Counted from the first letter of the stretch, positions 4,499 through 32,000 are shown. The stretch is 32,000 nucleotides of DNA from Pseudoalteromonas translucida KMM 520 (GCF_001465295.1 NZ_CP011035.1:450001-482000), one strand, 5' to 3'. Translations and numbers: made by a program. Notes: generated by a model not told the origin, from the letters alone.

Positions 4499-4503
4499 CC
4501 TTA

Positions 4504-4534
4504 AAGCAGGTCGAAAGGCCTGCTTATTGTATTG
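4504..4534 (+). terminator. Hairpin terminator after the ureohydrolase gene
   Basis: AAGCAGG (4504-4510) pairs with CCTGCTT (4519-4525) and is followed by a T-rich tail. It starts 6 nt after the stop. Confidence 0.55.
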
Positions 4535-4640
4535 ATAATAAAAGCCTTTTAATAAATATTAAATTTAAATTGCCCCGTTTAAAAAAGCGACTATAATCCA
4601 GCTGCTTTTGCTATAAAAGCGTATTTTATTGGAGCTATAA

Positions 4641-5942
4641 ATGGGTGATTTAGTCGGGATTGGCTTATTAATCTTGATCAGTGCGTTGTTTGCAATGTCG
4701 GAAATTGCGATTGCAGCATCGCGTAAAATAAAGTTAAGAGTAATGGCTGATGAGGGCAATGTTCAAGCAGCAGCAGTATTAAAGCTACAAGAACAACCTG
4801 GGGCATTTTTTGCCATGATCCAAATAACCCTTAATGCTATTGCTATATTAGGCGGCATTGTGGGTGAGCAAGCACTTTCGCCTTATGTGCAAAATGTTTT
4901 GCAGTTTTTTTATCAAGGCCCATTACTGGCACAAATTAGTTTTTTACTGTCGTTTTTAACCATTACCTCACTGTTTATTTTATTTGCAGACTTACTACCA
5001 AAGCGTTTGGCGATGATTTTGCCAGAGGCCGTTGCTGTGCGCGTGGTAACAATAATGCGCTGGGTTACCTATGCCTTAACGCCCTTGGTATTATTTTTTA
5101 ATGGTTTAACAAATATTATTTTGCGTATTTTTAAAGTACCTAGCGAGCGCGAAGATATTGTAACCACAGAAGACATTGTTGCCATGATGGATGCTGGTGC
5201 AGAATACGGCAGCCTACAACAACAAGAATACGATTTAATTGGTAACGTATTTGACCTAGAAGCGCGCTTTATATCGAGTGTAATGTCGCCGCGCGACCAA
5301 ATAGTTTATTTTGATATTAATGAATCGAGCCATGACATTGCCCGCAAAATAATAGAGCACCCACATAACCACTTTTTAGTGTGTAACGATAATTTAGATA
5401 AGTTAATCGGCTCTGTAGAATCAAAAGATATTTTACGCCAAGTACTCAAAGGCGATGCGGCAAATATTAATAGCGAAATGCTCGAAAAAGATATTTTTTA
5501 TCTGCCCGAAACCCTCAGTTTATCAGAGGCATTAAATGCGTTTAAAACAGCCGTACAGCCTTTTGCTGTAGTAGTTAACGAATACGCATTAGTGGTAGGC
5601 ATAGTAACAGTAAAAGATTTAATGAAAGGCTTTATGGGCGACTTAATTACTCACAGCGATGATGAGTTAATTGTTGAGCGCGACCCAAACTCCTGGTTAG
5701 TTGATGGTTTAACCCCCATAGTTGAGTTGGCTAAAGTACTTGATATTGATGAGTTTCCTCACCAGAGTCATTACGAAACCGTGGCCGGTTATTTAATTTA
5801 TACCATGAAGCGTATTCCAAAACGTGCAGAATACATTCAATACGCCGGCTTTAAATTTGAAGTGGTAGATGTTGAAGGCATTCGGGTTGAGCAGTTACTG
5901 GTATCAAAAATAGTACCCACGCCCGAGCCAACACAAAGCTAA
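4641..5942 (+). CDS. paeA: CNNM/TlyC-family membrane protein (DUF21-CBS pair-CorC_HlyC), orthologue of E. coli YtfL/PaeA polyamine exporter
   Basis: 433 aa, collinear with E. coli YtfL. Matching stretches include SEIAIAASRKIKL, LNAIAILGGIVGE, FADLLPKR, NEYALVVGIVT, ENSW/PNSWLVDG and KIPKR...KFEVVD. Confidence 0.9.
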   Translation: MGDLVGIGLLILISALFAMSEIAIAASRKIKLRVMADEGNVQAAAVLKLQEQPGAFFAMIQITLNAIAILGGIVGEQALSPYVQNVLQFFYQGPLLAQISFLLSFLTITSLFILFADLLPKRLAMILPEAVAVRVVTIMRWVTYALTPLVLFFNGLTNIILRIFKVPSEREDIVTTEDIVAMMDAGAEYGSLQQQEYDLIGNVFDLEARFISSVMSPRDQIVYFDINESSHDIARKIIEHPHNHFLVCNDNLDKLIGSVESKDILRQVLKGDAANINSEMLEKDIFYLPETLSLSEALNAFKTAVQPFAVVVNEYALVVGIVTVKDLMKGFMGDLITHSDDELIVERDPNSWLVDGLTPIVELAKVLDIDEFPHQSHYETVAGYLIYTMKRIPKRAEYIQYAGFKFEVVDVEGIRVEQLLVSKIVPTPEPTQS

Positions 5943-6001
5943 GTACAAACTAACTCAGCTGGTCATTAGCAAGTAAAGGCCAGCAGTAAAAATCACAAAG
6001 T

Positions 6002-6036
6002 AAAAACACCTTATTTTATTATTTTAAGGTGTTTTT
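6002..6036. terminator. Bidirectional-type hairpin terminator after paeA
   Basis: AAAAACACCTTA (6002-6013) pairs with TAAGGTGTTTTT (6025-6036), giving an A-run/stem/T-run architecture. Confidence 0.7.
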
Positions 6037-6038
6037 AC

Positions 6039-6306
6039 GTAGGTTGGTTTGAGCGCAGCGAAACCCAACAAAAAAAGGCAGCCTCAGTTAACATTAGCGT
6101 TATGTATTATCGATTACCTAAAAAGTACCGAATGTAGGTCGGATAAGCGAAGCGCCATCCGACACAGTAAAATATCTTGCCAATTATTATCAGCATTTTA
6201 TGTTATTGAATGGCTGGAAAGTGCCAACAGTGGACATTGGTAGCGCCCATTAAAGCGGCTGATAATTGTTTGCTAAAATGTGTAGCGAAGCGAAACCGAG
6301 CAAACA
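6039..6306. repeat. Cluster of REP-like palindromic units (three units)
   Basis: Unit 1 is GTAGGTTGGTTTGAGCGCAGCGAAACCCAACAA (6039-6072). Unit 2 is TGTAGGTCGGATAAGCGAAGCGCCATCCGACAC (6133-6165), which has the same architecture as enterobacterial REP (GTAGG-stem-AAGCG..GCGCC-stem). Unit 3 is the TGTTTGCT...AGCAAACA inverted repeat (6267-6306) with a GTAGCGAAGCGAAACC core. Confidence 0.7.
6133..6226 (+). repeat. ~95-bp composite repeat, copy 1 (REP hairpin plus ~60-nt tail)
   Basis: About 90% identical by eye to 18994-19090 in the same orientation. Differences are a few substitutions and a 3-bp TAT indel. Confidence 0.8.
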
Positions 6307-6337
6307 GCAAGTCCCATTTTAAATTCTTGTTATATTT

Positions 6338-7262
6338 TCAATACCCACAAATATCTGATTTAGCAAATGCAGCTCTTGTTCGAAATTTATCTAGAGACAC
6401 AATTACACCTTCTAAATCATATAATTTGACAATTTCTTCAGCAAAATCGATGAAATTAAGAAAATACAAACTACTCAACAAGTTATCAATAAAATTACAT
6501 TTACTGAAAATATGTAAAAAGTTAGAAGTTATCTCTTTTTTGTTATCAGCATGGAATCTAGCACTCCTTAACTCTAAGTCATATGCTTCTTGATACCCTT
6601 CAGAAAAATCTAAATGCCTAGCAAAGTAAAAAAGAGCATTGAGATCCGCTAAATACTCTGGTGTAAGTGAATTATATAAAGCTTCTAAGGTTTCTTTTTT
6701 TACTTCATTACGTAAGGTCATCTCTTCAAAAAAACTCGTATCAAAGGATGTAAAAGAAACCTCTTGGTGGCTTCTATCTCTGAAATTGGGGTTTAATTTA
6801 ACCCAATAACTTAATAGTTCTAATATTTGTGCTTCGGTTAAGCCCAGTAAAGTTAAATCATGTTTTACTAAGTATGCTGTTTCATAGTTTTTTTGAATTA
6901 AGTTGCAATGTAGTGGTCAGGAAATGATTTAACCGTAATTTCAATCTGCGTATTTTTAGTTAATGCGTTAGCGTCAAACAGCTCGGTTTTACTAAAACGA
7001 GTTAGCCCTTTAATATTTGAAGACTTCTTTTCAGCCAACCTTTTTTCACCAGTTTTAAAAGTTCTGCATAAAGCTTTTTTCTGAGTTTAACAGGATCTAA
7101 AGAATCATCATTTTTTAACGTAATATATGATGATCTGACTTCGCTCGTGGTGAAGTTATCAAAGTTGGGCGCAACAATTATTTGAACCACTAAAACATCA
7201 ATTTTCAATAAAACACATCGCTCCGATGGCGGAGCAGTTTTAGGCTTTTTTATTTGTGACAA
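6338..7262 (-). pseudogene. Hypothetical protein gene broken by two frameshifts (three consecutive open frames on the minus strand)
   Basis: Frame A runs 7262->7002 (..KLRKKLYAELLKLVKKGWLKRS). Frame B runs ~7090->6898 (..SNIKGLTRFSKTELFDANALTKNTQIEITVKSFPDHYIAT*). Frame C is open from 6916 to 6338, with no canonical start codon (ATG, GTG or TTG) before the ATG at 6721. Each frame overlaps the next by a few codons. I recognise no family. The region is AT-rich. Confidence 0.5.
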
Positions 7263-7292
7263 TCAAGCTCCGATATCAGAGCAAGAAAAGTT

Positions 7293-7514
7293 ATGAATAT
7301 TGTTGGTAAAAACGTAAGGACAATTCGTGAGACTAAAGGTTGGACTCAAGAGCAACTTGTAGCTAAGTGCAACCTTATTGATTGGCAAATTAGTAGAAGT
7401 ACTTTGGCTAAAATAGAAACTAATGCGGGAAGAGTAACAGATATTGAAGTACAGAAATTGTCTGTTGCACTGAATGTGCTGATTAATGAGTTGTTTTTAA
7501 ATTTAATAGGTTAA
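7293..7514 (+). CDS. XRE/Cro-C1 family helix-turn-helix transcriptional regulator
   Basis: 73 aa with a canonical HTH_3 pattern (IRETKGWTQEQLVAKCNLIDWQISRSTLAKIE). It is divergent from the broken gene with only ~30 bp between the ORFs. Confidence 0.85.
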   Translation: MNIVGKNVRTIRETKGWTQEQLVAKCNLIDWQISRSTLAKIETNAGRVTDIEVQKLSVALNVLINELFLNLIG

Positions 7515-7867
7515 TTTGTTATTGAAAGTTGGTCAAATAAAGTCTGAATTGTAGTAGATATAATGTTAATCACAGCTATTTAAAGTATTTATCATCAGTG
7601 CGGTGCCGCCCAATTACATTTAAGTTTATTACCCTAAAAAACTTTAAGCATTTAAAAAATCAGACGTAATAATGTATTTACTTCATAGCTTCTGTGAGCG
7701 CACTACTGACCTAAATGAGTACTCAAAACAAGGCGCATTTATGTTCACTTTGATACGAATATAGTTAACATCAATAGATATTGAGGCTGTTTACAGTGTT
7801 CAATCTATTTGATCTTGACAGACAACTAAGCCATATGCGCAGTCGTAGAGGCGTCAAATAAAAAGTG

Positions 7868-11106: not shown

Positions 11107-11543
11107 TTGATTGCTCCGTATATAAAAGTAAAAAGTTAATGGTTTCATATCGAGTATAGCTGATAAACTTTGTTTAAATGGCTACGGTTCGTTTCGATGG
11201 AGGTATGATATACCTTTTCTGGTAAGTTATAATCCCACCAAATGTAAAATTACTTTTACTGTGCTGTAACAGTTGTATGCAAAGTTAGCTAGGTAGATAG
11301 TATTTGGCTGATCATCCGCAGATAGACTAGGTTAAGCCTTAGCTAATATATACAAACGTGGCGGAGCTAAGTTGCCGATTGTGGTGTCCACACGTTTAGT
11401 TGCAGATAATTATGTTTGACTATTTATAGCCATAGCCTATCGCTAAACGGCTGTAAAAAATTATCTCGTCTTGATGTTATAGATGATGCCGTGCATTAAA
11501 ACGGACTGACTCAGTTAATTGTGCTGGCTCGAAATAAATAACA

Positions 11544-12410
11544 TCAAACCAGCTGCTCAGCCAAATAGTCTACCAATAACCTTATTCTCGGTGATAAATG
11601 ACGATTTTGTGGATAGACCGCCCATATACCTTCATCAGGAGCTCGGTAATTGTCTAATAAAGCCACTAGTTTACCGCTTTGTAGATGCTCCTCAATATAA
11701 TAATCGGGTAATTGTACTATGCCTAAGCCTTTCAAGGCTGCATCGGTCAAACAATGGCCATTGTTATAGCGTAGGCGACCTTTTACGCGGATACTTTTTT
11801 CTTTGCCTAATTCGCTAAAGTGCCAATAATCAGGTGTGCCTAATAAACAGCTATGTTTACTAAGCTCAGATATAGAGTGGGGGATGCCATGGGTGTCGAG
11901 ATATTGAGGAGATGCGCAAACATAGTTGCTGCGTGTGCCTAATTTTTTTGCCATCATTGACGAGTCACTTAACTTGCCTAAGCGAATAGCTAAATCATAA
12001 CCGTCTTCTGATAAATCGATTTGTCGGTTGCTTAAATAAGCCGACACTTCCACATCGCTATGGCGCTTTATAAAGTTATTCACCAGTGGCAATATGCGTT
12101 GCTCGCCATAGGTTACCGGAGCGGTTAATTTAATTTTACCTTGCGGCTTTGACTGTAAATTAGTTATTGCACGCTCTGCCGCATCTAAGCCGTCGAGCAC
12201 GCTGCGACAATGTTGATAAAAAACCCGTCCTTCTTCCGTTAAAGAGACTTTGCGCGTGGTACGGTAAAATAACTTTATATTAAGGCGTTTTTCTAAAGCA
12301 CTGATTTGGCGGCTAACTTGCGCGGTTGATATTTCCATTTTCTTTGCTGCCAATGTAAAACTTTCCTTCTCGGCGACATAAACAAATTCGCTAATACCTT
12401 CCCATTGTAT
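11544..12410 (-). CDS. LysR-family transcriptional regulator with no canonical start codon for its full wHTH
   Basis: LysR wHTH and substrate-binding domains are present. The frame is open upstream to a TAG at 12420-12422 and encodes (I)QWEGISEFVYVAEKESFTLAAKKMEISTAQVSRQISALEKRL, the typical LysR N-terminus. The only ATG/GTG/TTG there is the TTG at 12353, which would remove the first helix. ATA occupies the expected Met position (12408-12410). Confidence 0.8.
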   Translation of the reverse strand: MQWEGISEFVYVAEKESFTLAAKKMEISTAQVSRQISALEKRLNIKLFYRTTRKVSLTEEGRVFYQHCRSVLDGLDAAERAITNLQSKPQGKIKLTAPVTYGEQRILPLVNNFIKRHSDVEVSAYLSNRQIDLSEDGYDLAIRLGKLSDSSMMAKKLGTRSNYVCASPQYLDTHGIPHSISELSKHSCLLGTPDYWHFSELGKEKSIRVKGRLRYNNGHCLTDAALKGLGIVQLPDYYIEEHLQSGKLVALLDNYRAPDEGIWAVYPQNRHLSPRIRLLVDYLAEQLV

Positions 12411-12619
12411 GATTGTTACCTACATGTACAAGTGATTTTACAAATTATCATCATATAGGAAATAAATAGTATAACTACATCAAAACAAGTTTGTCGTGAC
12501 TTACTTAAGCAAAGGCTAACCCTAGGAAAAACATAAATAAAGCCTAAGTAAGTATAAGCAAAGTTAAATAATTTAACCGTATTGCTAGTGCGGTACCTAA
12601 AATTTAAGAGGACGAAGCG

Positions 12620-12946
12620 ATGAGTTGGATATAGCTTTTGTTAGGGGGTATTGCTGAAGCAATGTCTCATGTGGTCTTAAAAGCAACCGATGATTTTACC
12701 AAGCCAGGTGTCAGTGCGCTAGTCCTATCAGGGCACTTAGCCGCATTTATGTTTTTAGGACAAGCGATGAAGGGGATGCCCATTGGCATTGTGCATGCGT
12801 TATGGGCAGGGCTTGCGATTATAACCGTGACATTATTATCTACCGTTATTTACCGTCAGCATCTAGACTTAACAATATGGCTTGGAATGGCATTAGTCGC
12901 AATTGGCATTGCCATGATTAATATTTCTCAAGGGCACAGTCATTAA
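12620..12946 (+). pseudogene. SMR-family (EmrE/SugE-like) small multidrug transporter with an in-frame amber at codon 5
   Basis: A strong SD (AAGAGGA, 12606-12612) lies 7 nt before the ATG at 12620. The frame reads ATG AGT TGG ATA TAG = MSWI*, then continues in the same frame as LLLGGIAEAM... with four SMR TM segments and the conserved TM1 Glu. The listed ORF restarts at TTG 12638. Confidence 0.8.
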
Positions 12947-13019
12947 GAGCAACGAATTTGTTTCTCTCGCTAGTTATTAAGCGTGTAAAAAGGCTTGTAA
13001 AGAAGCGTAAGTAAGCGTT

Positions 13020-13051
13020 ATAGGTAATAATGTTGCTTTATTATTACCTAT
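13020..13051. promoter_or_regulatory. Perfect 12-bp inverted repeat (candidate operator, or an AT-rich hairpin)
   Basis: ATAGGTAATAAT (13020-13031) and ATTATTACCTAT (13040-13051) are separated by an 8-bp spacer. The site lies between the SMR gene and frmA. Confidence 0.35.
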
Positions 13052-13164
13052 TAGTAAGAGTAAGTTGCATTTAAGGAGTATTACTATCATTAGGTAAGAA
13101 GAGTAGACTAGCTTCATAGTGTAAGTTGGTCTTTGTAAGAAACGATTGAAATATCAACAATTAA

Positions 13165-14310
<1,146 letters not shown>

Positions 14311-18993: not shown

Positions 18994-19090
18994 TGTAGGT
19001 CGGATAAGCGAAGCGCCATCCGGCACAGTAAAATACCTTGCCAATTATTATTATCAGCATTTTATGTTATCGAATAGCTTGAAAGTGCCA
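18994..19090 (+). repeat. ~95-bp composite repeat, copy 2
   Basis: TGTAGGTCGGATAAGCGAAGCGCCATCCGGCAC plus tail, matching 6133-6226. Confidence 0.8.
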
Positions 19091-20759: not shown

Positions 20760-21053
20760 TTGAAAACACTCCATTGCTTGATGTAAATATAACAGCTTTA
20801 TCAGAGGACACTTTCCCTATTAAAGCGCGAAAACCTCCTTATTGCATGAGCTGCCATTAATAGCAAATAGTGTAACTTATTGCCAGCTATAAATATTACG
20901 CTTACTGTAGGTTATTTAAACATGTAAAAATGGGAAGTTTCCTCTTAGTATCGCTTACCCAATACGCTAGGGGAGTTTTGACTGTAAGCAAATTGCCGCT
21001 TTAGTCAACCAAATTTACACATGTTTACAGCATTAAATCTAGTTGAAAATAAT

Positions 21054-21065
21054 TGCTAATTAGCA
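21054..21065. promoter_or_regulatory. 12-bp perfect palindrome upstream of the RND operon
   Basis: The sequence is TGCTAA|TTAGCA. Confidence 0.3.
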
Positions 21066-21086
21066 TTGGAAAGCGTTGCGGAATAA

Positions 21087-21110
21087 TTTAGAATGAACGT
21101 TCATTCTAAA
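21087..21110. promoter_or_regulatory. 24-bp perfect palindrome, candidate TetR-type operator of the RND operon
   Basis: TTTAGAATGAAC|GTTCATTCTAAA ends 30 bp upstream of the adaptor gene ATG. Confidence 0.55.
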
Positions 21111-21140
21111 ATGTAAATTCAAGTTAAAAGGTAATTTAAT

Positions 21141-22313
21141 ATGCAGCGTTCCCGCATCGCGCTTTTGGTATTTTCGGCCCTCGTTGGTTCTGTTGTTTTA
21201 ACTGGTTGTGATCAGGCTGCTGAGCAACCTAAAGCTTCTGCTTCTCAAGCTATGCCAGTAGGTGTAATAACATTAAAAAGTGAAGCGCTTACGCTTAAAA
21301 AAGAATTACCTGGGCGTGTAAGTGCTTATCAAATTGCAGAAATTCGTCCTCAAGTTAGCGGTATTGTGCAATCTCGTTTGTTTACAGAAGGTAAGCAAGT
21401 AGAAAAAGGCCAAGCGCTATATCAAATAAATCCAGCCATTTTTGAAGCTGAGCTTGCAGCAAGTAAAGCAGCTGTAGCCCGCGCTGAAGCGAGCATTGCT
21501 AGCAGTAAGTCAAAAGCATCTCGCTATAGTGAGTTATTAGCAATAAAAGCAGTGAGTCAGCAAGATTATGACGAAGCTGATGCAACGTCTAAGCAAGCAT
21601 CGGCAGAGTTGCTCACAGCAAAAGCACAATTGCAAGCAGCGCAAATTAACCTTGATTACAGCAATGTGTCGTCGCCAATTAGCGGCCAAATTAGTAAATC
21701 AAGTGTAACCGTGGGTGCTTTAGTTAGCGCGAATCAAGCAGTAGCACTGGCTACTGTAACGCAGCTTGATCCTATTTATGTGGATTTAACACAATCGAGT
21801 AATGAGCTTACTAAGCTTAAAAAAGCACTAGCTTCTGGTTTGCTTGAGGTTGACTCTGCAATTCAAACCGAAGTTGAACTTTATATGGAAGATGGTTCAG
21901 TTTACGCCCATAAAGGCACGTTACAGTTTTCTGAAGTGACTGTCGATCCAAGCACTGGTTCAGTAACGCTGCGAGCTAAGTTTCCAAATCCTGAAAAGTT
22001 ACTATTACCGGGTATGTATGTACGTGCAGAAATTGTTGAAGGTGTAAAAGCGAATGCTATTTTAGCGCCACAACGTGGTGTGAGCCGCAACACCAAAGGT
22101 GAGCCTACTGCAATGGTGGTTGGTAATGATAATACGGTGCAAAGCCGTGTATTAAAAGTGGACCGTACTATTGGCTCTGACTGGTTAGTGACGGATGGCT
22201 TAGCCGATGGCGATCAATTAATTGTAGAAGGTTTACAAAAAATTCGCCCGGGTGCAGCAGTGCAAGCGTCTGAAGTTGAATCAACAGCGTCAGCTGCTAC
22301 TAAAGCGCAATAA
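21141..22313 (+). CDS. RND efflux periplasmic adaptor (AcrA/MexA family) lipoprotein
   Basis: Lipobox LTGC is present. Coiled-coil hairpin and barrel motifs are present (YQINP..FEAEL, L.YS.V.SPISG, LLPGMYVR). Confidence 0.95.
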   Translation: MQRSRIALLVFSALVGSVVLTGCDQAAEQPKASASQAMPVGVITLKSEALTLKKELPGRVSAYQIAEIRPQVSGIVQSRLFTEGKQVEKGQALYQINPAIFEAELAASKAAVARAEASIASSKSKASRYSELLAIKAVSQQDYDEADATSKQASAELLTAKAQLQAAQINLDYSNVSSPISGQISKSSVTVGALVSANQAVALATVTQLDPIYVDLTQSSNELTKLKKALASGLLEVDSAIQTEVELYMEDGSVYAHKGTLQFSEVTVDPSTGSVTLRAKFPNPEKLLLPGMYVRAEIVEGVKANAILAPQRGVSRNTKGEPTAMVVGNDNTVQSRVLKVDRTIGSDWLVTDGLADGDQLIVEGLQKIRPGAAVQASEVESTASAATKAQ

Positions 22314-22325
22314 CGGAGAGTATTA

Positions 22326-25300
22326 ATGTCACGATTTTTTATCGATAGGCCTATATTTGCATGGGTACTGGCCATAGTAGTTATGCTTGCGGGCATTTTA
22401 GCGGTTATGAATTTGCCGATTGCGCAGTATCCGTCTATTGCCCCTCCGGCAATTACAATTACGGCAAACTATCCGGGTGCATCAGCAAGAACATTAGAAG
22501 ATTCAGTTACCCAAGTTATTGAGCAGAAGATGAAGGGCCTTGATGGGCTGCTTTACATGTCATCTACTTCGCAATCAAGCGGCTCTGCTTCATTAACCTT
22601 GTCGTTTAGTGCTGATACCGACCCCGATATAGCACAAGTTCAAGTGCAAAATAAATTGGCTACTGCAACACCATTACTGCCTGAAGAAGTACAACGCCAA
22701 GGTGTTGTGGTTGCTAAGTCATCAAGTAGCTTTTTAATGGTGCTGGGCTTTGTATCGCAAGATGGCAGCATGACCAATATTGATATTGGCGATTATGTAG
22801 CCTCAAACGTGCAAGATATTGTGTCACGCGTTGAAGGCGTGGGTGAAGTACAACTATTTGGCTCGCAATACGCGATGCGCATTTGGTTAGACCCTGCTAA
22901 GTTGCAAAATTATAAACTGACACCGGCAGACATTGCCGCGTCAATTAGAGCACAAAACGCACAAGTTTCTGCCGGTCAACTTGGTGGTATGCCTGCGGTA
23001 TATGATCAACAGCTTAATGCGACTGTTACTGCACAAAGCCGATTAAAAACACCAGAACAATTTAAAAACATTTTAATTAAAACCAATAGCGATGGCTCAG
23101 CTGTACACCTTAGTGATGTAGCAGATGTAGAACTTGGTGGTGAAAACTATGGTGTAGTTGCGCGTTTTAACGGCAAGCCTGCATCGGGTTTAGGGGTAAA
23201 ACTGGCCAGTGGTGCTAATGCGCTAGATACGGCAAACGGGGTTAAACAAGCCCTTGAAGAGCTTAAACCGTTTTTTCCTCAGGGCTTAGAAAGCGTTATT
23301 CCTTACGACACGACACCGTTTGTATCGTTATCGATTGAAAAAGTAATTCATACTTTAATTGAAGCTGTTGTATTAGTGTTTGTGGTTATGTACCTGTTTT
23401 TACAAAACTTTCGTGCAACCTTGATCCCTACAATTGCAGTGCCGGTGGTATTGCTAGGCACATTTGGTATTTTGTACACCTTTGGTTATTCAATCAATAC
23501 GTTAACTATGTTTGCTATGGTACTGGCAATAGGTTTGCTGGTTGATGATGCGATTGTTGTGGTAGAGAACGTTGAACGGCTAATGAGTGAAGAAAAGCTC
23601 TCTGCGCTGGAAGCCACCCGAAAATCGATGGATGAAATTAAAGGCGCATTGGTGGGTATTGCTATGGTGCTGTCGGCGGTATTTATTCCGATGGCGTTTT
23701 TTAGCGGTTCTACCGGGGTTATTTATCGCCAATTTTCAATTACTTTAGTTTCTGCAATGAGCTTGTCGGTATTGGTTGCGCTTATTTTAACACCTGCATT
23801 ATGTGCCACCTTATTAAAGCCAAGCCATGTACATGATACTAGTTCGTTTATGGGGCGGTTTTTTGTTGGATTTAACCGTAATTTTGATAAAACAAATACC
23901 GGTGCACAAGGGTTTGTAGCGCGTATGATCAAACATTCTAAGCGTTATTTACTTAGTTATGTATTGATTGTAGCTGGCATGGCGTACATATTTTCAAGTT
24001 TGCCAACCGCATTTTTACCCGACGAAGACCAAGGTATTTTGTTTAACCAAGTAATGTTGCCAGCAGGCTCTACTACACAGCAAACACTTAAAGTGGTTGA
24101 AAAGGTAGAAAACCATTACTTAAATGATCAAGCCGAAGCGGTTAAATCTATTTTTACCGTTACAGGTTTTAGTTTTGCTGGTTCTGGACAAAATGCTGCA
24201 ATTGGTTTTGTGAGCTTAAAGCACTGGGATGATCGCCAGAGTGATGATTTATCGGTGGGCGCGGTTGCAGGTAAAGGTATGGGGTATTTTTCAACCATAA
24301 AAGAAGCACTAGTATTTGCTTTTCCACCTCCGGCAATTCCTGAGCTAGGCACGGCAAATGGCTTTACTATGTTTTTACAAGACCGAGTAGGCTTAGGCCA
24401 TGACGAGCTATTAAAAGCGCGTAATATGTTGCTAGGTATGGCAAGTAAAAGCCCTATTTTAGCGGGTGTGCGTCCTAACGGCCAAGAAGATATGCCAGAA
24501 CTACAACTTGATATTGACCTTGCAAAAGCAGAAGCGCTGGGTGTATCACAAGGTGATATTAACAGTACCTTAGCGACAGCTTGGGGGAGTAGTTATGTGA
24601 ATGACTTTATTGACCGCGGTCGGGTTAAAAAGGTGTATTTGCAAGGCCAAGCTGAGTCTCGCATGGTGCCTGAGGATTTAAATAAGTGGTATGTACGCAA
24701 TAAAAGCGGCGATATGGTGCCATTTTCAGCCTTTGCTAGTTCGCACTGGACTTACGGCTCACCTCGCTTAGAGCGCTATAACGGTTTTTCAGCGATGGAA
24801 GTTCAAGGTAGTGCTGCACCAGGTTATAGCTCTGGAGAAGCGATGGAAGAAATGGAACGTTTAGTTGCACAACTTCCTGCAGGTTTTGCATCTGAGTGGA
24901 CGGGTATATCATTTCAGGAACGCTCTAGTGGTGGTCAAGCTCCTTTACTGTATGGCTTGTCGCTGTTATTCGTATTTTTATGTTTAGCTGCTTTATACGA
25001 AAGTTGGTCGGTTCCTTTTGCCGTTATGCTAATTGTACCTTTAGGTATATTGGGGGCAATTATGGCCGCATTTGTTGGTAATTTATCAAATGATATTTAC
25101 TTACAAGTGGGCTTATTAACCACCATAGGTTTGGCATCGAAAAACGCTATATTAATTGTAGAATTTGCGATTCATAAAAAGGAAGAAGGCCTAAGCTTAG
25201 TTGACGCTGCAGTGGCTGCAGTGCGTTTACGTTTACGTCCAATATTAATGACGTCGCTGGCCTTTATGTGTGGTGTATTACCACTGGCTATTGCCTCAAG

Positions 25301-25460
25301 TGCTGGTTCGGGTGCACAAAACGCGCTGGGTATTTCAATTATTGGTGGCACCTTTGCGTCATCAACTATTGTGGTGTTGTTTGTACCTTTGTTTTTTGTT
25401 GTAGTTCACCGTTTATTTTCTAGCAAAAGCAGCAAAGGTGTTAAGGAGGGGGCGCAATGA
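22326..25460 (+). CDS. RND multidrug efflux permease (AcrB/MexB, HAE1 family)
   Basis: 1044 aa. Matching stretches include [17 protein letters not shown], the conserved TM4 [19 protein letters not shown] and the 12-TM plus two-large-loop layout. Confidence 0.97.
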
Positions 25461-26890
25461 GCTTAACCACAGTTAATTTAAAAACCTTTAGCCTTAGTGC
25501 AATTGCGTTAATGGTGTTGTCGGGGTGCCAACTTGCCCCTGAGCAACAACAAATAGCTTTACCTGTGCCTGATGCGTATGCATCGGGTGCAGAAGAGCAA
25601 GCACAAGCTACACAGCTAAATTGGCAGCAGTTTTTTAACGATGAAAAACTGCAAGCGTTAATTGCACAGAGCCTTGAGCATAATAAAGATTTACAAATTG
25701 CTGCATTAAATGTGCAGCGTGTGCGTGGTTTATATCAAATAGAAGACTCGGCATTATTTCCATCGCTTGATATAAATGGCTCTGGCTCGCGTCAGCGCTT
25801 GCCGGGTGATTTATCGGGTACTGGTGAGCCGCGTATTACTTCGCAGTACAGTGCTACCGTAGGTATTACCTCATATGAGCTTGATATATGGGGCAAGGTG
25901 CGCAATCAGTCAACGCAAGCACTACAAACCTTATACTCTACGCAGCTGAGTCAATACAGTATGCAAGTGTCGCTTATTGCTGAGCTTGCTAATGCATGGC
26001 TTAACTATGCAACCGACCAGCAGTTATTAGCACTGGCCGAGGAAACCTTAACGTCGCAACAATCGTCGTTATCACTTACTCAGCAAAGCTTTGATTTAGG
26101 TGCTGCATCAGCAATTACCCTAGAGCAACTTAAGAGTACGGTTGCTACAGCTAAAGTTGATATAGCAAAGTATAAGCGTTTATTAAAGCGCGATAAAAAT
26201 GCGCTTGATTTACTAGTAGGTAATAGCGTTGCCAGTGATTTACTGCCAAATGCGTCACTTAATCATTTACTCGACCTACCAGAAGTACCGGTTGGTTTAC
26301 CGTCTGATTTACTCACCCAACGCCCTGATATTAAAGCGGCTGAGCATCAGTTATTAGCGGCTAATGCAAATATTGGTATTGCGCGTGCTGCGTTTTATCC
26401 AAGTATTAGCTTAACCGCTAATGCGGGTACTGCATCAAGCGACTTAAGTGGTTTATTTGATGGGGGCTCGGGTACGTGGAGTTTTGTACCTACTATTAAT
26501 TTGCCTATTTTTAATATGGGCCGTAACCAAGCTAATTTAGATGTTGCTAAAGCAGCGCAACAAATAGCGCTTACTACCTATCAGCAAAAAATTCAGCAAG
26601 CGTTTCGTGAAGTTGCTGACGTACTTGCAGATAACGAAGGTTATAACGCCCAGTTAAGTGCACTTGAGCAGTTATTGCAAAGTCGTCAGGCAACCTTTGA
26701 CATATCGCAAGCGCGTTACGACAAAGGGGCCGACAGTTACTTGCAAGTACTTGATTCACAAAGAACTTGGTACAGTGCCCAACAGCAGTTAATTACGGGT
26801 AAGCAAGCATTGTTGGCCAGTAAAATTAATTTATATAAAGCGGTTGGTGGTGGTTGGCAAGCACCTAAAGATACAGATCAATCTAAGTAG
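25457..26890 (+). CDS. Outer-membrane factor lipoprotein (OprM/NodT family)
   Basis: Lipobox LSGC is present. Features include two OEP repeats, RPDI.AAE and a C-terminal LYKA.GGGW. A 4-nt overlap with the pump gene indicates translational coupling. Confidence 0.95.
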
Positions 26891-26894
26891 TTTA

Positions 26895-27010
26895 TATGGC
26901 CTATATCTTTAAATGTAGGCCATAGTTAAACTAACTAATTTGATAAGTATTACCAATTTAACACCCTTGAAGCCCCTGTATTTAAGTGCTGAGGCGTAAA
27001 GGGTGTTTTT
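26895..27010 (+). terminator. Two hairpins after the efflux operon
   Basis: The first is TATGGCCTA (26895-26903) with TAGGCCATA (26916-26924). The second is AACACCCTT (26960-26968) with AAGGGTGTT (26999-27007), followed by a T-run. Confidence 0.5.
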
Positions 27011-27040
27011 AGAACCGCTGGTTTAGTAGTAGGGGTGCAA

Positions 27041-27676
27041 ATGAAACATAAAAATAAAAGGCAGACAGATCCTGCGTTAGTCGAAGCACGCCGTACACAA
27101 GTACTAAATGCTGCTGCAGACTGTTTTCGTCGTAAGGGTTATCATGGCGCTGGCATGGCTGAAATTGCAAGAACTGCAGGTATGAGTGCTGGACATATCT
27201 ATAATTACTTTGAAAGTAAAGAAGCAATAATAGAGAGTATTATTGAGCAAGACATGCAAGAAATGTTTTCTATATTTCAAGAGTTTGAAGATCAGCCTGG
27301 GGATTTGTTAACGATACTTTTAGATCGGTTGCATCAAAGTGTGCAACGCAATATGGATACCGGTGCCTGTGTGATCGATTTAGATATGATGGCAGAAGCG
27401 AGTAGAAACGATAAAGTAGCCTCGCTATTGCATGAAGCCGATATGCAAGCGCGTAACAGAATGAGACAGTTATTAATTAGCGACAGAAGCTTGTTAAAAT
27501 CACACTCAGAGCAAGAACTAGAGAGCCGTATTAATGTTATTTTTTCGATGATGGCGGGCTTATTTTTACGCAAAATGCTCTACCCAGAACTAACCGAAGA
27601 AACAGTATTAATAGCACTTCGCCCAGCGATGAAAACGCTACTCATGCCTTTTGAAGTGCATGACGAAGTGCTATAA
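27041..27676 (+). CDS. TetR/AcrR-family transcriptional regulator
   Basis: An N-terminal HTH is present (VLNAAADCFRRKGYHGAGMAEIARTAGMSAGHIYNYFESKEAI). ATG at 27041 has AGGGG upstream. The gene lies downstream of the RND operon on the same strand. Confidence 0.9.
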   Translation: MKHKNKRQTDPALVEARRTQVLNAAADCFRRKGYHGAGMAEIARTAGMSAGHIYNYFESKEAIIESIIEQDMQEMFSIFQEFEDQPGDLLTILLDRLHQSVQRNMDTGACVIDLDMMAEASRNDKVASLLHEADMQARNRMRQLLISDRSLLKSHSEQELESRINVIFSMMAGLFLRKMLYPELTEETVLIALRPAMKTLLMPFEVHDEVL

Positions 27677-27712
27677 AAAAGTACTCTAAATTGGTATTAG
27701 GGCGGTTACAGG

Positions 27713-28816
27713 TTAAAACCGCTCGATTGACCATTGTAATGCAATCAGTGCTATGGCAAATGAGCCCACCGGCATTAACCATTTTTTATACCACTGATAG
27801 CCTCTTATGCTGATTAACACCGGTAATGCTACGAGTAAAATACTGAGCTGACCAATTTCTACCCCTAAGTTAAATGCCACAATACTCAATAGCTGATAAT
27901 CGCTCGACAGCCCCAACTCACCCAATACACTGGCAAACCCCATGCCGTGCAATAAACCAAATGCAAATGTTACCCAGCCTAAGCGCAATACCAGTGGCCA
28001 TACATTATTAAGTGCAGCAAAAAGTACTGATAGGGCAATACCTAGCTCTACCCAGCGGCTATTTGGCGATACTAAATTCATAGCTGTTGCAGTAAGCGTA
28101 ATTGAATGCGCTAGGGTAAAGGCGGTAACTATCCACGCGGTGTGTTTAATAATTTGTTTTTTTGAGCTAATACTTTGCCATTGTTTTTCGGTGCGGGTAA
28201 GTACGCAGGTAAGTAATAAGGCGATTAAAAATAAAATATGATCAATACCAATCCAAATATGTAATATTCCTTGATACACATATTGATTAAAGGTGCTTAA
28301 GTAGCTTGATTGGCTAAAGTTAAATGTTTGTTTTGCATTGGCTGCGCTAAACACGCGCGATAAATTATTAATATTTACAATGGCTTTGTGGTTGCCATCG
28401 GTATTAAAAAAGGCGCTGTAATGTAAGCTAATGTCAGTTTGGTCAGCGCAGCTAAATAGCAGCGGTATTACTAAATAGGGTTGATTAAAGTGACTATCTA
28501 ATTGATACGCTCCTTGGGTAGAGAGCGTGCATGCCTGTTGTTGCTGAATTAGCTGTAAATTAGCATAAACAAAACTATTAATTGAGCTGCGTTTGGCTTT
28601 TATTTCAGCCCAGGTTATTTGTTTGTCGTTATTAATATCGAGCGCCACGACTTGCTCTAAATCGGTTATATTTACTTGCCACTGACCACTGTACTTATTT
28701 TGGCTAGCAGCGGTATTATTTAAAGTTATATAGCCAGTACTTAACTGATGAGCAAAGCTATTAGTGGCCACTAAACTGGTGGCTAAAGTGAGAATAAATA
28801 CACAAAATAGTTTCAT
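27713..28816 (-). CDS. HupE/UreJ-like membrane protein with a ~180-aa N-terminal periplasmic domain
   Basis: The signal peptide ends ..TNSFA|HQLSTGY. The C-terminal polytopic region carries H-rich signatures (GILHIWIGIDHILFLIALLL, AHSITLT, GLLHGMGFASVLGE, LGVEIGQL) typical of the HupE/UreJ superfamily. Its start overlaps the TPR gene stop by 4 nt. Confidence 0.7.
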   Translation of the reverse strand: MKLFCVFILTLATSLVATNSFAHQLSTGYITLNNTAASQNKYSGQWQVNITDLEQVVALDINNDKQITWAEIKAKRSSINSFVYANLQLIQQQQACTLSTQGAYQLDSHFNQPYLVIPLLFSCADQTDISLHYSAFFNTDGNHKAIVNINNLSRVFSAANAKQTFNFSQSSYLSTFNQYVYQGILHIWIGIDHILFLIALLLTCVLTRTEKQWQSISSKKQIIKHTAWIVTAFTLAHSITLTATAMNLVSPNSRWVELGIALSVLFAALNNVWPLVLRLGWVTFAFGLLHGMGFASVLGELGLSSDYQLLSIVAFNLGVEIGQLSILLVALPVLISIRGYQWYKKWLMPVGSFAIALIALQWSIERF

Positions 28817-29838
28817 AGTGTTGCTCGCTGCATGGCTTTGGCTTGTATTAATAACTGCTTATCGGTGCTCATTTTAGCTTGTTGCCAATTTATATTGGCC
28901 CAGTACAGGGCTTTATCACTATTTGGCGCTACTGCAATATAATAGTGGGCTAGATCGCTGGCATGAAAGGTATCTTGGCGTAGTTCGCGCAGCGCCACAC
29001 GGCTTTTCATCATTGTTTGCCATTTTGTACTAACCGCATTGGTATTTTTTTCAGCAATAGCCAACCTGAGTAAAATAGCATCTTCTAAATTACTGTTATC
29101 TGTTAGCAAACCAGCTAAACTATTGAGTACTTGCTGGGTGTTATTAAGTGCTAATTGTGTATCGGCCCACAGTACAATAAGGCTCACCGGCGCAAACTGT
29201 AAATCGACATGGCTAATGTAGCTCAGCGCAGTTTGGTAATTATTTAATCGGTAGCTCATTTCACTTAGTACATGAGCAGTGGCTAGGCTAATATTTTTAT
29301 TATGGGTAATATTTTTTAATGCATTATAACTTTGTATTAGCTGCTGTTGCTGGCTTTGTACATCTAACACGCAAGTACTTACGGTAATAAGGCTTACCTG
29401 CCCAATTAAGGCTGTACAATGCCCTTTGGCAGCAGTGAATTTACCTTTGGTCATGTAAATATTAGCCAGTAATAAATGACTATTACTGTGATTTGGCTCA
29501 GCCACTAATACTTCAGTAGCAATTTTAATTGCAGCATCAAATTGGTGCTCTTTTTGTAGTACTCGTGCATATAAATAACCAACTTGTGGAGTGGGGTTTT
29601 GGTTATACAAAGTTGCTAAATGTGTTTTTAACACACCTTGCAAACGTTCAGTTTGCCCAGCATATTGGCTATTTATAACTAATTCGTTTATTTCGGCAAC
29701 AGACAGTTGAGCTACTATATTTGAGTTGCTAGGGGCAATAATTTCATTATCGGCTGGGGTAAAAGCGCTGGCAAATACATTGCTTGAAAATAACATACCC
29801 ATAAGTAGCAAAATTAATTTGGTGTAAGATAATTGCAT
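28813..29838 (-). CDS. Exported TPR-like repeat protein
   Basis: The signal peptide is MQLSYTKLILLLMGMLFSSNVFASA. Repeated helical-hairpin motifs are present (..YLYARVLQKEHQFDAAIKIATEVL..EPNHSNSHLLLANIYMTKGKFTAAKGHC..). Confidence 0.65.
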   Translation of the reverse strand: MQLSYTKLILLLMGMLFSSNVFASAFTPADNEIIAPSNSNIVAQLSVAEINELVINSQYAGQTERLQGVLKTHLATLYNQNPTPQVGYLYARVLQKEHQFDAAIKIATEVLVAEPNHSNSHLLLANIYMTKGKFTAAKGHCTALIGQVSLITVSTCVLDVQSQQQQLIQSYNALKNITHNKNISLATAHVLSEMSYRLNNYQTALSYISHVDLQFAPVSLIVLWADTQLALNNTQQVLNSLAGLLTDNSNLEDAILLRLAIAEKNTNAVSTKWQTMMKSRVALRELRQDTFHASDLAHYYIAVAPNSDKALYWANINWQQAKMSTDKQLLIQAKAMQRATL

Positions 29839-29897
29839 TGTTTAGTCCTTTTGAAAAAGCCATCCGTGGCCTGTCAGCTTTGATTATGAATTACTGA

Positions 29898-30404
29898 TTA
29901 ATTACCTGTTGCAGGGTGGAGGCCACCAACATCTGTTTCGGTGTTGGTAAATACTCGGCCGTTAATAGACAGTGGCTCTGCGTTAGCGGGTTGATTAAAT
30001 GCATCGGTTGCAAACTGAGCAAAGTCGACTTGCAACGCTTCAATAGTAATACTTACCGTTGCTGTTACTTGGTTGTTAACCCCATCAGACACACCAAACA
30101 TAAAGCTATCTGACCCTGTTTGTTCTTTGTTGGGCGTGTAGGTGTATGTGCCATCGGCATTTACAACTACGCTGCCGAGTGTGGGTTGGGTTGTTATGCT
30201 GTAGGTAAGTGTATCGCCATCGGCATCTGCTGCGTCAAGCATGTCGTTAATAGCCACCTCAGTTTGTGTGGTTACCATGGTATCGCTTGCTGTGGGAGCA
30301 ACATTAACCGCCACTGTTGGCTCGTTGTCATTATCGCTACCACAGCCGCTCATTGCTAAAACACTTACCAGCAAACATGCCTGTGTATATTTTAAATTAC
30401 GCAT
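29898..30404 (-). CDS. Lipoprotein with a cadherin/VCBS-type Ig-like domain
   Basis: Lipobox LAMSGC is present. The stretch DADGDTLTYSITTQPTLGSVVVNADGTYTYTPNKEQTGSDSFMFGVSDGVNN..ATVSITI is the classic bacterial cadherin-like/VCBS repeat pattern. Confidence 0.7.
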   Translation of the reverse strand: MRNLKYTQACLLVSVLAMSGCGSDNDNEPTVAVNVAPTASDTMVTTQTEVAINDMLDAADADGDTLTYSITTQPTLGSVVVNADGTYTYTPNKEQTGSDSFMFGVSDGVNNQVTATVSITIEALQVDFAQFATDAFNQPANAEPLSINGRVFTNTETDVGGLHPATGN

Positions 30405-30415
30405 TATTTTATTCC

Positions 30416-32000
30416 TTATTTAGAACCCGCAAGTGGGGTAGTAAGGTAGGGAAAGCTTGCATCCATCATAGCGGCATTTATTGGTGCGCCATCGGTAAAT
30501 TGCACAGTACCTACTTCAGCATCCTCTGGTTTACAAAGCCCTAAATTAGTGTCTACGCCTGCTACAGGGATAGGGTGACATAAACGACCCATAACAACTC
30601 TTAGTGCTATATCAACAACGTCATCACCTGGGCGACGGCCATTTGGAAATCCGGCTAAATCATTACCTGCTACCCCAAATGTAGATTGATCAGCTTGCGC
30701 TGTTGCTGCAATTTTAGTGTTTAAACGCAGCATTTCTGATGGCGTTACTGTTGCTTGCTGATTAACATCGGCAAAACCAGTTAAAAATGCGGTTATAAGG
30801 TCATTACGTGGAAAGTTTGTAGGTGCAAGCGTGGCAAAATTTGTCCCTAGGGTGGTATTAACTGCATCTTTAAATAAAATATTTAATAGTTCAGGCAGTG
30901 AAGGATGCGACACATAATCTAAAAATTGACCATCATCTTTAGGATGTGCAGTAGAGAAGGTGTCTTTATCTTTAATACCAATTACTAGCTCATTAACCAG
31001 TGGGTTACCTAAACGCGAAACTTGCGTTAATGCGCCGCCGTTAACTGCGTTATTTGCAAACTTAGCATTAGGGTTTAAAATACGTGCTTGCGGTAAGCTT
31101 GCTGTTGTCCACGAACCAATTACGCCATTACCTGAGCCAATCACACAGCTTTTAGGTATTTCGATTGCTATAGAGGTAATGTTTTTATCAGCTAAATCAT
31201 CGTTATCTGCCGACTGTGTAATGCCACCAGGAAAGCCTGAGCCATCACCTGCACCCGCAGCACTGTCACCTTCAACAGGTACGTAGTTTACTAAATCAAA
31301 GGTTTTGCCTAGGTTAACTACAAAAGAGTCTTTACGTTGGCCAACGAACACTTTAGCCATGCCATCACAGTTCGCAATAGCGACTTGATACATAAATTGG
31401 TCGGCATACATTTGGTAATCTTGCTTTGAGGTAAAGGTTTTATTACCTACATAATCAAGCGGTTTATTAAAAGTAGTTGAGCTAGTAGTGGTGTTACTAA
31501 GCTGTACGCTAGTGCCTGTTTTTTGCGGGCCGCTGATCATGTTTACAGTGTAAGATTCACTAAAGTTAGCTGCACTATCATTACCTGCCGTAATACCACC
31601 AACATTTTTTAGCGGCACAGATACAGTGCGCTGATTGCCCTCAGGGCCGACGGTTAATTGCACACCTTGATTATCATTAGGCAGCATACTTTTAAAGTTA
31701 AACGCAAAAGTAATATCTTCAATAGCATCACCATCGTTATCAATGTGAATGCTGTAAGTAGCATCAGGGTCCATGGCAAAGTAATTAGGGCCACCGTAGG
31801 CATCTTGCAATGGAATGTAATTAGCAATCAAGGTAACAAAGTCACCACGGCCTTGCTCATAACTATTAAAAACATAAAAATCGGTAGAGTCTAAGGTTGG
31901 AAAACGACTAATATTAGGCGCTTCTCTATGGCTTGATGCTTCACTTGATGCACTTGCAAAAGTAGCACATATAACAACTGCGAGTATTGATGGAGTAAAA
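30416..32000 (-). CDS. DUF4331-family secreted protein (start just beyond the window edge)
   Basis: The frame stays open upstream of the listed TTG to base 32000: ..FTPSILAVVICATFASASSEASSHREAPNISRFPTLDSTDFYVFNSYEQGRGDFVTLIANYIPLQDAYGGPNYF. This has a signal peptide plus the SSHREAP...D.TD.Y.F N-terminal signature that I associate with DUF4331. The DNDGDAIEDITF loop follows. Confidence 0.75.
   Translation of the reverse strand, partial: FTPSILAVVICATFASASSEASSHREAPNISRFPTLDSTDFYVFNSYEQGRGDFVTLIANYIPLQDAYGGPNYFAMDPDATYSIHIDNDGDAIEDITFAFNFKSMLPNDNQGVQLTVGPEGNQRTVSVPLKNVGGITAGNDSAANFSESYTVNMISGPQKTGTSVQLSNTTTSSTTFNKPLDYVGNKTFTSKQDYQMYADQFMYQVAIANCDGMAKVFVGQRKDSFVVNLGKTFDLVNYVPVEGDSAAGAGDGSGFPGGITQSADNDDLADKNITSIAIEIPKSCVIGSGNGVIGSWTTASLPQARILNPNAKFANNAVNGGALTQVSRLGNPLVNELVIGIKDKDTFSTAHPKDDGQFLDYVSHPSLPELLNILFKDAVNTTLGTNFATLAPTNFPRNDLITAFLTGFADVNQQATVTPSEMLRLNTKIAATAQADQSTFGVAGNDLAGFPNGRRPGDDVVDIALRVVMGRLCHPIPVAGVDTNLGLCKPEDAEVGTVQFTDGAPINAAMMDASFPYLTTPLAGSK

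Follow-up and report, generated by a model that had tools for sequence, protein, structure and literature searches.

A conserved DUF4331 operon in Pseudoalteromonas translucida KMM 520 and its putative role in metal capture at the cell envelope

What joins four adjacent genes for exported proteins, one of them a member of the large family DUF4331, and what might their products do in the envelope? The window considered here, a stretch of 32,000 nucleotides (nt) from Pseudoalteromonas translucida KMM 520 (GCF_001465295.1 NZ_CP011035.1:450001-482000), raises this question at positions 27,713 to 32,000, where the minus strand encodes a DUF4331 protein, a lipoprotein, a periplasmic protein with tetratricopeptide repeats (TPR) and a HupE/UreJ-2 permease (HupE2). 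We report here that the four-gene operon is real and widely conserved, and that its genes would form the structural part of a six-gene envelope module that also includes genes for an extracytoplasmic function (ECF) sigma factor and its anti-sigma factor. From sequence, structural models and gene neighborhoods, we lean slightly toward an ECF18-controlled module that captures a metal of the Cu/Ni type for delivery to the permease; in other lineages, on the best reading, it works with an outer-membrane receptor.

Four genes in one conserved operon

The genes are laid out as follows, in window coordinates (↓ marks a predicted signal peptide cleavage site).

27713-28816, minus strand: HupE_UreJ_2 permease gene (HupE2), open reading frame (ORF) of 367 amino acids (aa)
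28813-29838, minus strand: periplasmic TPR-like protein gene, ORF of 341 aa, Sec signal ...NVFA↓SAFTP
29898-30404, minus strand: lipoprotein gene, ORF of 168 aa, with lipobox Cys21, a Big_9/cadherin-like insert and a conserved C-terminal tail
30416 to beyond 32000, minus strand: DUF4331 gene, product of about 530 aa with a Sec signal

The original prediction, made from the sequence alone, had described four tightly packed minus-strand genes, and the ORF coordinates bear this out, with gaps of 11 nt and 59 nt and then a 4-nt overlap. The DUF4331 reading frame is open to the window edge; alignment to scaffold L087, a relative with 89.3% DNA identity over window positions 20955-32000, leaves only the first three codons (M-K-A) outside. 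Between positions 27000 and 32000, sigma-70-like promoters were not above chance and no Rfam match, to a riboswitch or any other RNA, was found; no minus-strand terminator was found within the four genes. Together these results are consistent with a single transcription unit. The export signals (two Sec signals, one lipobox and one signal on the permease) were all read directly in the sequence, as claimed.

The four family assignments hold in Pfam. DUF4331 (PF14224) was matched at an E value of 2.5e-152 (508 bits against a cut-off of 27) over profile positions 1-421 of 421, and the lipoprotein matched Big_9 at 6.5e-18 (65.8 bits against 23.6) and Cadherin_5 at 5.2e-15. The TPR protein lies just over the cut-offs for ANAPC3 (34.7 bits against 27.2) and TPR_19 (28.6 against 25), with residues 87-142 as the sole repeat region detected, and a PDB search with it returned only generic TPR matches. 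The permease had been called HupE/UreJ-like; it belongs to HupE_UreJ_2 (PF13795; 7.5e-44, 149.6 bits against 24.5, residues 179-338), whereas canonical HupE_UreJ (PF04955) falls below its cut-off (21.3 bits against 23). NCBIfam held no family for DUF4331 or HupE2, and an exact-sequence look-up of the window's HupE2 protein gave no record.

Conservation was assessed in one scan of a genome collection, which yielded 80 loci ranked by similarity to the window's DUF4331 protein. Partner genes were scored by phmmer and then with hidden Markov models built from the matches, and partner counts cover the 73 loci whose sequence continues for 4 kb or more past DUF4331 on the downstream side. The TPR gene follows DUF4331 in 58 of these loci and HupE2 in 53; a TonB-dependent receptor is present in 16, DUF4198 in 7 and canonical HupE in 5. 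One or another of HupE2, HupE, a TonB-dependent receptor or DUF4198 lies within 6 kb downstream in 62 of the 73. The order DUF4331-lipoprotein-TPR-HupE2 is kept in Gammaproteobacteria, Betaproteobacteria and Nitrospiraceae, and the operon is syntenic in many genomes, as its description as a functional unit had supposed. The gammaproteobacterial order is sigma, anti-sigma, DUF4331, lipoprotein, TPR, HupE2; Oxalobacteraceae and Nitrospiraceae have the same four structural genes with regulators nearby in other orientation. Sphingomonadales carry DUF4331 and the lipoprotein followed by DUF4198 and canonical HupE, and two further loci, of which one is from a Phycisphaerae genome, carry DUF4331, a small protein and DUF4198.

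The four proteins

HupE2 contains an N-terminal extra domain of 155 residues, here called Ang-like, ahead of its membrane domain.

28292-28750, minus strand: Ang-like beta-sandwich domain, residues 23-175, starting at invariant His23
28604-28639, minus strand: canonical EF-hand loop DINNDKQITWAE, 12 residues, inside the Ang-like domain
27803-28282, minus strand: polytopic HupE/UreJ-2 membrane domain, residues 179-338, from the Pfam match

By the -3/-1 rule, His23 is the predicted mature residue 1 (...NSFA↓HQLSTGY). Across 58 homologues it is invariant, as are Q24, S26, T27, Y29, E71, C96, C123 and H143 in the Ang-like domain and H186, D192, H193, H237, H290 and E320 in the membrane domain. The EF-hand loop, with the alignment consensus DxNxDGxLxWxE and the invariant E71, sits in a helical insert. 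An AlphaFold 2 (AF2) model built from the 58 sequences (predicted local distance difference test [pLDDT], 87.8) shows a beta-sandwich with this insert (residues 24-170) and six long helices. The top Foldseek match of the N-terminal domain in the PDB was 9gce (E value, 8.7e-5; template-modeling [TM] score, 0.63), and the next were ZrgA (8f1b, 8ezw) and PA4063 (7bgo), at 5e-4 to 2.5e-3.

The 9gce structure is the Cu-bound Ang-1 "anglerase" domain of a HupE/UreJ-2 protein, reported in 2025 (Franco Cairo et al., Nat Commun 2025, PMC12537917). Ang-1 binds Cu2+ (Kd, 74 nM) and Ni2+ (220 nM) through a His1 mono-histidine brace and is proposed to "fish" metal on behalf of the permease (PMC12537917). 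The statement that HupE/UreJ variants with a long N terminus have no experimentally defined role must accordingly be withdrawn, because a fold-level relative has been crystallized with Cu and binds Cu2+ and Ni2+ (PMC12537917). Shared with the anglerase proteins are a signal peptide followed by an invariant His, the beta-sandwich, helices between strands 2 and 3, a linker and the PF13795 membrane domain; what sets the window's domain apart is its canonical EF-hand loop together with two conserved, paired Cys residues. The gene neighbors reported for Ang-1 are mostly unknown proteins, DUF4198 (a Ni-binding protein), indigoidine-A-like proteins and PfkB, and the paper makes no mention of DUF4331, a TPR protein, a lipoprotein or an ECF sigma factor (PMC12537917).

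Two further groups of relatives bear comparison. ZrgA of Vibrio cholerae and PA4063 of Pseudomonas aeruginosa share the fold of the HupE2 N-terminal domain and are periplasmic zinc binders; they are free-standing and about 10% identical, whereas the window's domain is fused to a permease and lies under an ECF promoter. Both are encoded in Zur-regulated operons with ABC-type (ATP-binding cassette) importers. The canonical HupE/UreJ Ni/Co permeases (PF04955), a related Pfam family, have in common with HupE2 the His/Asp motifs in the first helix and a His after the signal peptide, and they differ in family and in the extra domain of the window's PF13795 protein. The Ang-like domain also occurs on its own in Arsukibacterium: in the region 11199-13785 of locus L028 (Arsukibacterium tuosuense), as also in L024 and L032, a free-standing 170-aa periplasmic Ang-like protein (ALA↓HKFST...) has no membrane part, and the gene directly after it encodes a TonB-dependent receptor.

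The N terminus of the TPR protein varies with the presence of HupE2. In all seven loci with a TPR gene and no HupE2 (L009, L013, L023, L052, L062, L075 and L081), the TPR protein is His-rich from the first residue after the signal peptide (for example A↓HPKHHHEE, A↓HTYHSHKP, S↓HENHQHEKPH and A↓HRNGHGAEH), whereas in about 50 loci with HupE2 it opens with A↓(A/T)P(Y/F)xP and has no His there. The module thus seems to need one N-terminal His site, supplied by either the TPR protein or HupE2, and the complementary occurrence links the two, TPR protein and Ang-like domain, in a common task. This complementarity is the strongest internal argument for metal handling. Separately, His98, His292 and a Cys141/Cys156 pair of the TPR protein are conserved in about 60 orthologues, which is unusual for a plain TPR scaffold; they may mark a binding site.

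In 77 of 82 loci, drawn from different phyla, the next ORF after DUF4331 has a lipobox. The window's lipoprotein (lipobox ...AMSG-C21) carries a Big_9 domain; outside loci of the Alteromonadales and Cellvibrionales types, the lipoproteins are 70 to 110 aa long and have no such domain. The ORFs after DUF4331 in Gamma-, Beta- and Alphaproteobacteria, Nitrospiraceae and Planctomycetota were compared, and a C-terminal segment of the form hydrophobic-x-x-AF...(D/E)(A/T)EP..., often with an acidic YDDLL-like end, is shared among them.

29949-30029, minus strand: conserved lipoprotein tail VDFAQFATDAFNQPANAEPLSINGRVF, the sole part common to the lipoproteins of other lineages

Big_9 as a core component was rejected, since it is confined to the Alteromonadales- and Cellvibrionales-type loci. 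For the predicted Ig-like lipoprotein, then, the family assignment and the lipobox stand and the Ig domain is not a core part; on comparison of the sequences, the Ig/Big_9 domain is a lineage-specific accessory insert, and what is conserved is the lipid anchor with its tail. Anchor and acidic tail together are a natural candidate tether for DUF4331.

DUF4331 is by far the most conserved of the compared products and belongs to a family with 4,432 representatives at 50% clustering (E value, ≤1e-3). The window's protein is 72 to 97% identical to proteins of many Alteromonadales and Cellvibrionales; by genome, identity is 88% in P. arctica, 75% in Gilvimarinus, 69% in Kangiella and 51 to 53% in Duganella and a Nitrospiraceae genome, over which range the TPR protein drops from 67% to 24% and HupE2 from 77% to 35%. 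Where DUF4331 is 69 to 88% identical, the TPR protein is at 29 to 67% and HupE2 at 37 to 77%.

31916-31936, minus strand: SSHREAP motif, residues 22-28, right after the predicted cleavage site SEA↓SSHREAP
31715-31741, minus strand: DxDxDG-type loop DNDGDAIED, a predicted Ca2+ site beside conserved His85

In 82 homologues (51 to 88% identity) A-S-S-H-R-E-x-P is invariant, and SSH-x-[ED]AP follows the export signal in 119 of 120 close and 115 of 119 distant homologues. In every close homologue, cleavage at A↓SSH would agree with the -3/-1 rule, and ASS↓H is also possible. Both Asp-rich loops of the original prediction, DNDGDAIED in DUF4331 and DADGDTLTY in the lipoprotein, are present. In the former, D87, G90 and D91 are invariant and H85, N88, E94 and D95 nearly so among the 82 homologues, which also conserve a Cys211/Cys285 pair (one likely disulfide) and many invariant Asp, Arg and Asn residues, including PNGRRPGDDVVD. 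The AF2 model from these 82 sequences (pLDDT, 80.9; pTM, 0.83) consists of a large beta-rich part (residues 41-330) followed by a helical C-terminal part; the SSHREAP tail (residues 16-36) is modeled as flexible (pLDDT, <50), and the invariant loop 242-260 has low model confidence. Foldseek with this model found no PDB chain at an E value of ≤1e-3 (best TM scores, about 0.1), and sequence and profile searches of PDB sequences gave noise only.

A literature search on DUF4331, PF14224, PF13795 and HupE_UreJ_2 returned nothing. The original prediction held that DUF4331 and this gene combination have no defined role, and no paper was found on either.

Regulation and genomic surroundings

The operon had been suspected to continue past the window, and in relatives it does. 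Immediately upstream of DUF4331 in P. arctica, Gilvimarinus agarilyticus and L087, and in the same orientation, stand genes for an ECF sigma factor (174-177 aa) and an RskA_C anti-sigma factor (227-234 aa); these regulators are known from relatives (L087, L001 and L002), the matching DNA of P. translucida lying beyond window position 32000. Among the 73 loci, 46 have the sigma gene and 43 the anti-sigma gene. An ECF18-type promoter, TGCATCC-N16-CGTw, stands ahead of both the sigma gene and DUF4331; in P. arctica the element TTTGCATCCAAATCACACTCTCAACCGTTTAC precedes the former and TTTGCATCCAATTTAAATCCTGCCCCGTTATT the latter. The pattern TG[CA]ATCC-N15-17-CGT[AT] gave 81 matches in 81 non-redundant loci (2.54 Mb, both strands), and 69 of them fall in two upstream zones, those of DUF4331 (45 loci) and the sigma gene (24 loci); several of the remaining 12 precede DUF4331 starts over-extended by the ORF caller. 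Because the pattern misses variants such as GCATCT and GCGTCC, this is a minimum count. The motif is absent from the window, as expected, since the promoter lies beyond 32000. In six Pseudoalteromonas loci, the ECF promoter is the sole block conserved upstream of the sigma gene.

The consensus published for ECF18 promoters, GCATCC / CGTAT (PMC13492112), is the same as this motif. The sigma factor is a putative RskA-partnered ECF18 type, predicted to be autoregulated, with a second promoter before DUF4331. The RskA-partnered sigma factors ECF18, ECF19 and ECF214 form one clade whose signal is unknown (PMC7826278, PMC7509140), and RpoT, a studied ECF18 member, is linked to solvent efflux (PMC3597554). 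The SigK/RskA and RpoT-type ECF18/19 pairs resemble the present one in having an RskA_C gene beside the sigma gene, an autoregulatory promoter GCATCC...CGT and an adjacent target operon for secreted proteins. They differ in what they are known to control, which is mpt70/mpt83 in mycobacteria and, in P. putida, a pump for solvent efflux; none of these papers reports a DUF4331 operon as a target (PMC7509140, PMC7826278, PMC3597554). A literature search combining HupE/UreJ with ECF and anti-sigma factors found nothing.

Several loci show variations on this arrangement. L052 (5504-9590) has tandem DUF4331 genes, each with its own downstream partner, and an ECF-type motif before the first (5471). 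L012, labeled Flavobacterium sp. W21_SRS_FM6, holds a full Alteromonadales-type six-gene module with a DUF4331 protein 74% identical to the window's, which suggests a mislabeled or contaminated assembly or a recent transfer. Acinetobacter species have the order DoxX-DUF4331-lipoprotein-TPR-receptor beside a bufferin-type MbnB/DUF2063/ECF cluster. In L062 (Acinetobacter tjernbergiae, 4456-7818), and similarly in L075 and L081, this bufferin-like cluster for a ribosomally synthesized and post-translationally modified peptide (MbnB/DUF692, DUF2063, an ECF sigma gene and a small upstream ORF) is divergent to the DUF4331 group, which comprises DoxX, DUF4331, the lipoprotein, a His-rich TPR protein and a TonB-dependent receptor. 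The bufferin-like neighbor suggests a copper link in Acinetobacter. In Sphingomonadales, a VirB-type type IV secretion cluster (SLT transglycosylase, TrbC/VirB2, VirB3 and VirB4) lies just downstream of the DUF4331-DUF4198-HupE group (L045, 11250-15290, with matching parts of L042, L050, L056 and L059), so that this group may sit on a mobile element.

Elsewhere in the window, an AcrAB/TolC-type resistance-nodulation-division (RND) efflux operon and a TetR-family regulator gene, at 21141-27676, are convergent to the HupE2 gene. The operon encodes a membrane-fusion protein, a 1044-aa ACR_tran pump and an OEP outer-membrane factor; the convergent RND/TetR arrangement is kept in P. arctica and L087 and probably has no connection with the DUF4331 operon. 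A repeat of about 95 nt, in copies about 93% identical (window 6136-6224 and 18997-19088; L087 13244-13335), opens with a palindrome like repetitive extragenic palindromic elements, GTAGGTCGGATAAGCGAAGCGCCATCCGAC, and is matched by no Rfam family.

Possible functions of the module

In the mechanism that we lean toward, a periplasmic cue would cause the anti-sigma factor to free the sigma factor, and the operon would be transcribed. The exported DUF4331 protein would be kept at a membrane through the conserved acidic tail of the small lipoprotein; with the TPR protein it would capture or process a transition-metal species (of the Cu/Ni type, with Co or Zn possible). The metal would then be handed to the N-terminal His of the Ang-like domain, which would feed it to the HupE/UreJ-2 permease for import. 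Uptake is the suggested direction because HupE permeases, TonB-dependent receptors and DUF4198 are import-side components. Of the envelope metal module envisaged at the outset, feeding a HupE-like channel, the outline agrees with the structure match and the gene neighborhoods, and the metal function is one that we infer.

Several points weigh against metal capture for the permease. The Ang-like domain is 11% identical to 9gce in the structural alignment, and a profile of the 58 HupE2 homologues did not find 9gce in the PDB at an E value of ≤10; for both reasons we call the domain Ang-like rather than a member of Ang-1. Transport by PF13795 proteins is itself inferred and not directly measured (PMC12537917). 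Only two His residues, H24 and H85, are conserved in DUF4331, few for a metal binder of 500 aa, and no experiment on any DUF4331 protein was found in the literature search. A few family members have a lipobox 6 to 9 residues before the SSH motif, so that a site requiring a free N terminus, whether an amino-terminal Cu/Ni (ATCUN) motif or a His1 brace, cannot be family-wide; a strict ATCUN/His1 reading of the DUF4331 N terminus is thereby weakened. Of the two proteins proposed to place a His at or near the mature N terminus, HupE2 is predicted to do so with the invariant His23, and for the SSH of DUF4331 a strict free-N-terminus reading is not secure. No Zur-, Fur- or NikR-like box is conserved upstream of the sigma gene in the six Pseudoalteromonas loci; of what had been looked for upstream, further genes were found, namely those of the sigma and anti-sigma factors, together with the ECF promoter. 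Neither His nor Cys is conserved in the periplasmic domain of the anti-sigma factor, so direct metal sensing by that domain is not indicated. The 80 loci, finally, come from a single scan ranked by similarity to this DUF4331 and are mostly of Proteobacteria, so that the partner counts speak chiefly for that group.

Some of the neighborhoods would suit defense against metal stress, in which the ECF system would respond to surplus metal in the periplasm, with DUF4331, the lipoprotein and the TPR protein sequestering or buffering that metal and HupE2 redistributing it, much as in CnrYXH-controlled resistance or bufferin-type protection. ECF sigma/anti-sigma pairs typically respond to envelope stress, and bufferins protect from copper stress (PMC11626156). 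Two observations speak for defense: a Czc-like RND efflux operon follows the cluster in Gilvimarinus, and three species of Acinetobacter have, right beside the cluster, a bufferin-like MbnB/DUF2063/DoxX cluster that includes an ECF sigma factor of its own. The recurring partners, however, are of import type (TonB-dependent receptors, HupE permeases and DUF4198), and the RND neighbors are not conserved, the window's own being a convergent TetR-controlled AcrAB-type pump; we consider defense unlikely.

Quite unlikely, in our estimate, is that DUF4331 is an enzyme acting on, or a protein binding, a substrate other than a metal in the envelope or outside the cell, with HupE2 or the receptor importing its product. 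Its unusual conservation relative to the TPR protein and HupE2 would fit such a role, as would its many invariant Asp, Arg and Asn residues (including PNGRRPGDDVVD) with few His or Cys, which suit an active site, and no solved relative of its fold limits the chemistry it might perform. Yet every identifiable partner family has metal-binding or metal-transport relatives, the His-rich N terminus moves to the TPR protein where HupE2 is absent, and Pfam, NCBIfam and PDB profile searches gave no catalytic family for DUF4331. That the four genes are mere neighbors without a common function, held together by recent common descent, would agree with the many loci drawn from related Alteromonadales. This explanation is most improbable and was already disfavored: the gene order persists at 24 to 53% protein identity in Oxalobacteraceae and Nitrospiraceae, a shared ECF promoter, the 4-nt overlap and the short gaps couple the genes, and the His-rich N termini substitute for each other in complementary fashion.

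An extension of the metal-capture module that we offer tentatively, and think possible rather than probable, is that DUF4331 with its obligatory lipoprotein is a metal-capture device of a new class, a protein "metallophore" or relay. It would pass Cu/Ni-type ions to interchangeable acceptors (the Ang-like-HupE/UreJ-2 permease, canonical HupE, DUF4198 or a TonB-dependent receptor), and the operon would be a physiological target of ECF18-type sigma factors in Proteobacteria and at least Nitrospiraceae. Hemophore systems of the HasA-HasR-HasI/HasS type, with an exported binder, a TonB-dependent receptor and an ECF sigma/anti-sigma pair, match some lineages in their parts. They have no known sequence or fold relation to the module; the window has a permease in place of the receptor, and the module's anti-sigma factor is of the RskA and not the FecR type.

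HupE/UreJ-2 with an N-terminal metal-binding domain has been known since 2025, and ECF18/RskA pairs are likewise already known. The literature search yielded no paper on the obligatory lipoprotein partner of DUF4331, nor on the association, under ECF18-type control, of DUF4331 with TPR, HupE-type, receptor and DUF4198 partners. With this operon, a large family without a solved structure (about 4,400 clusters when grouped at 50% identity) gains a defined context open to testing, which has a specific regulator and promoter, an obligatory lipoprotein and metal-transport acceptors. It would take the "anglerase" idea beyond one fusion protein to a pathway of several components and provides a candidate regulon for sigma factors of the ECF18 type, for which few signals and targets have been established. 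For marine bacteria, the module may be a route by which scarce trace metals are gained.

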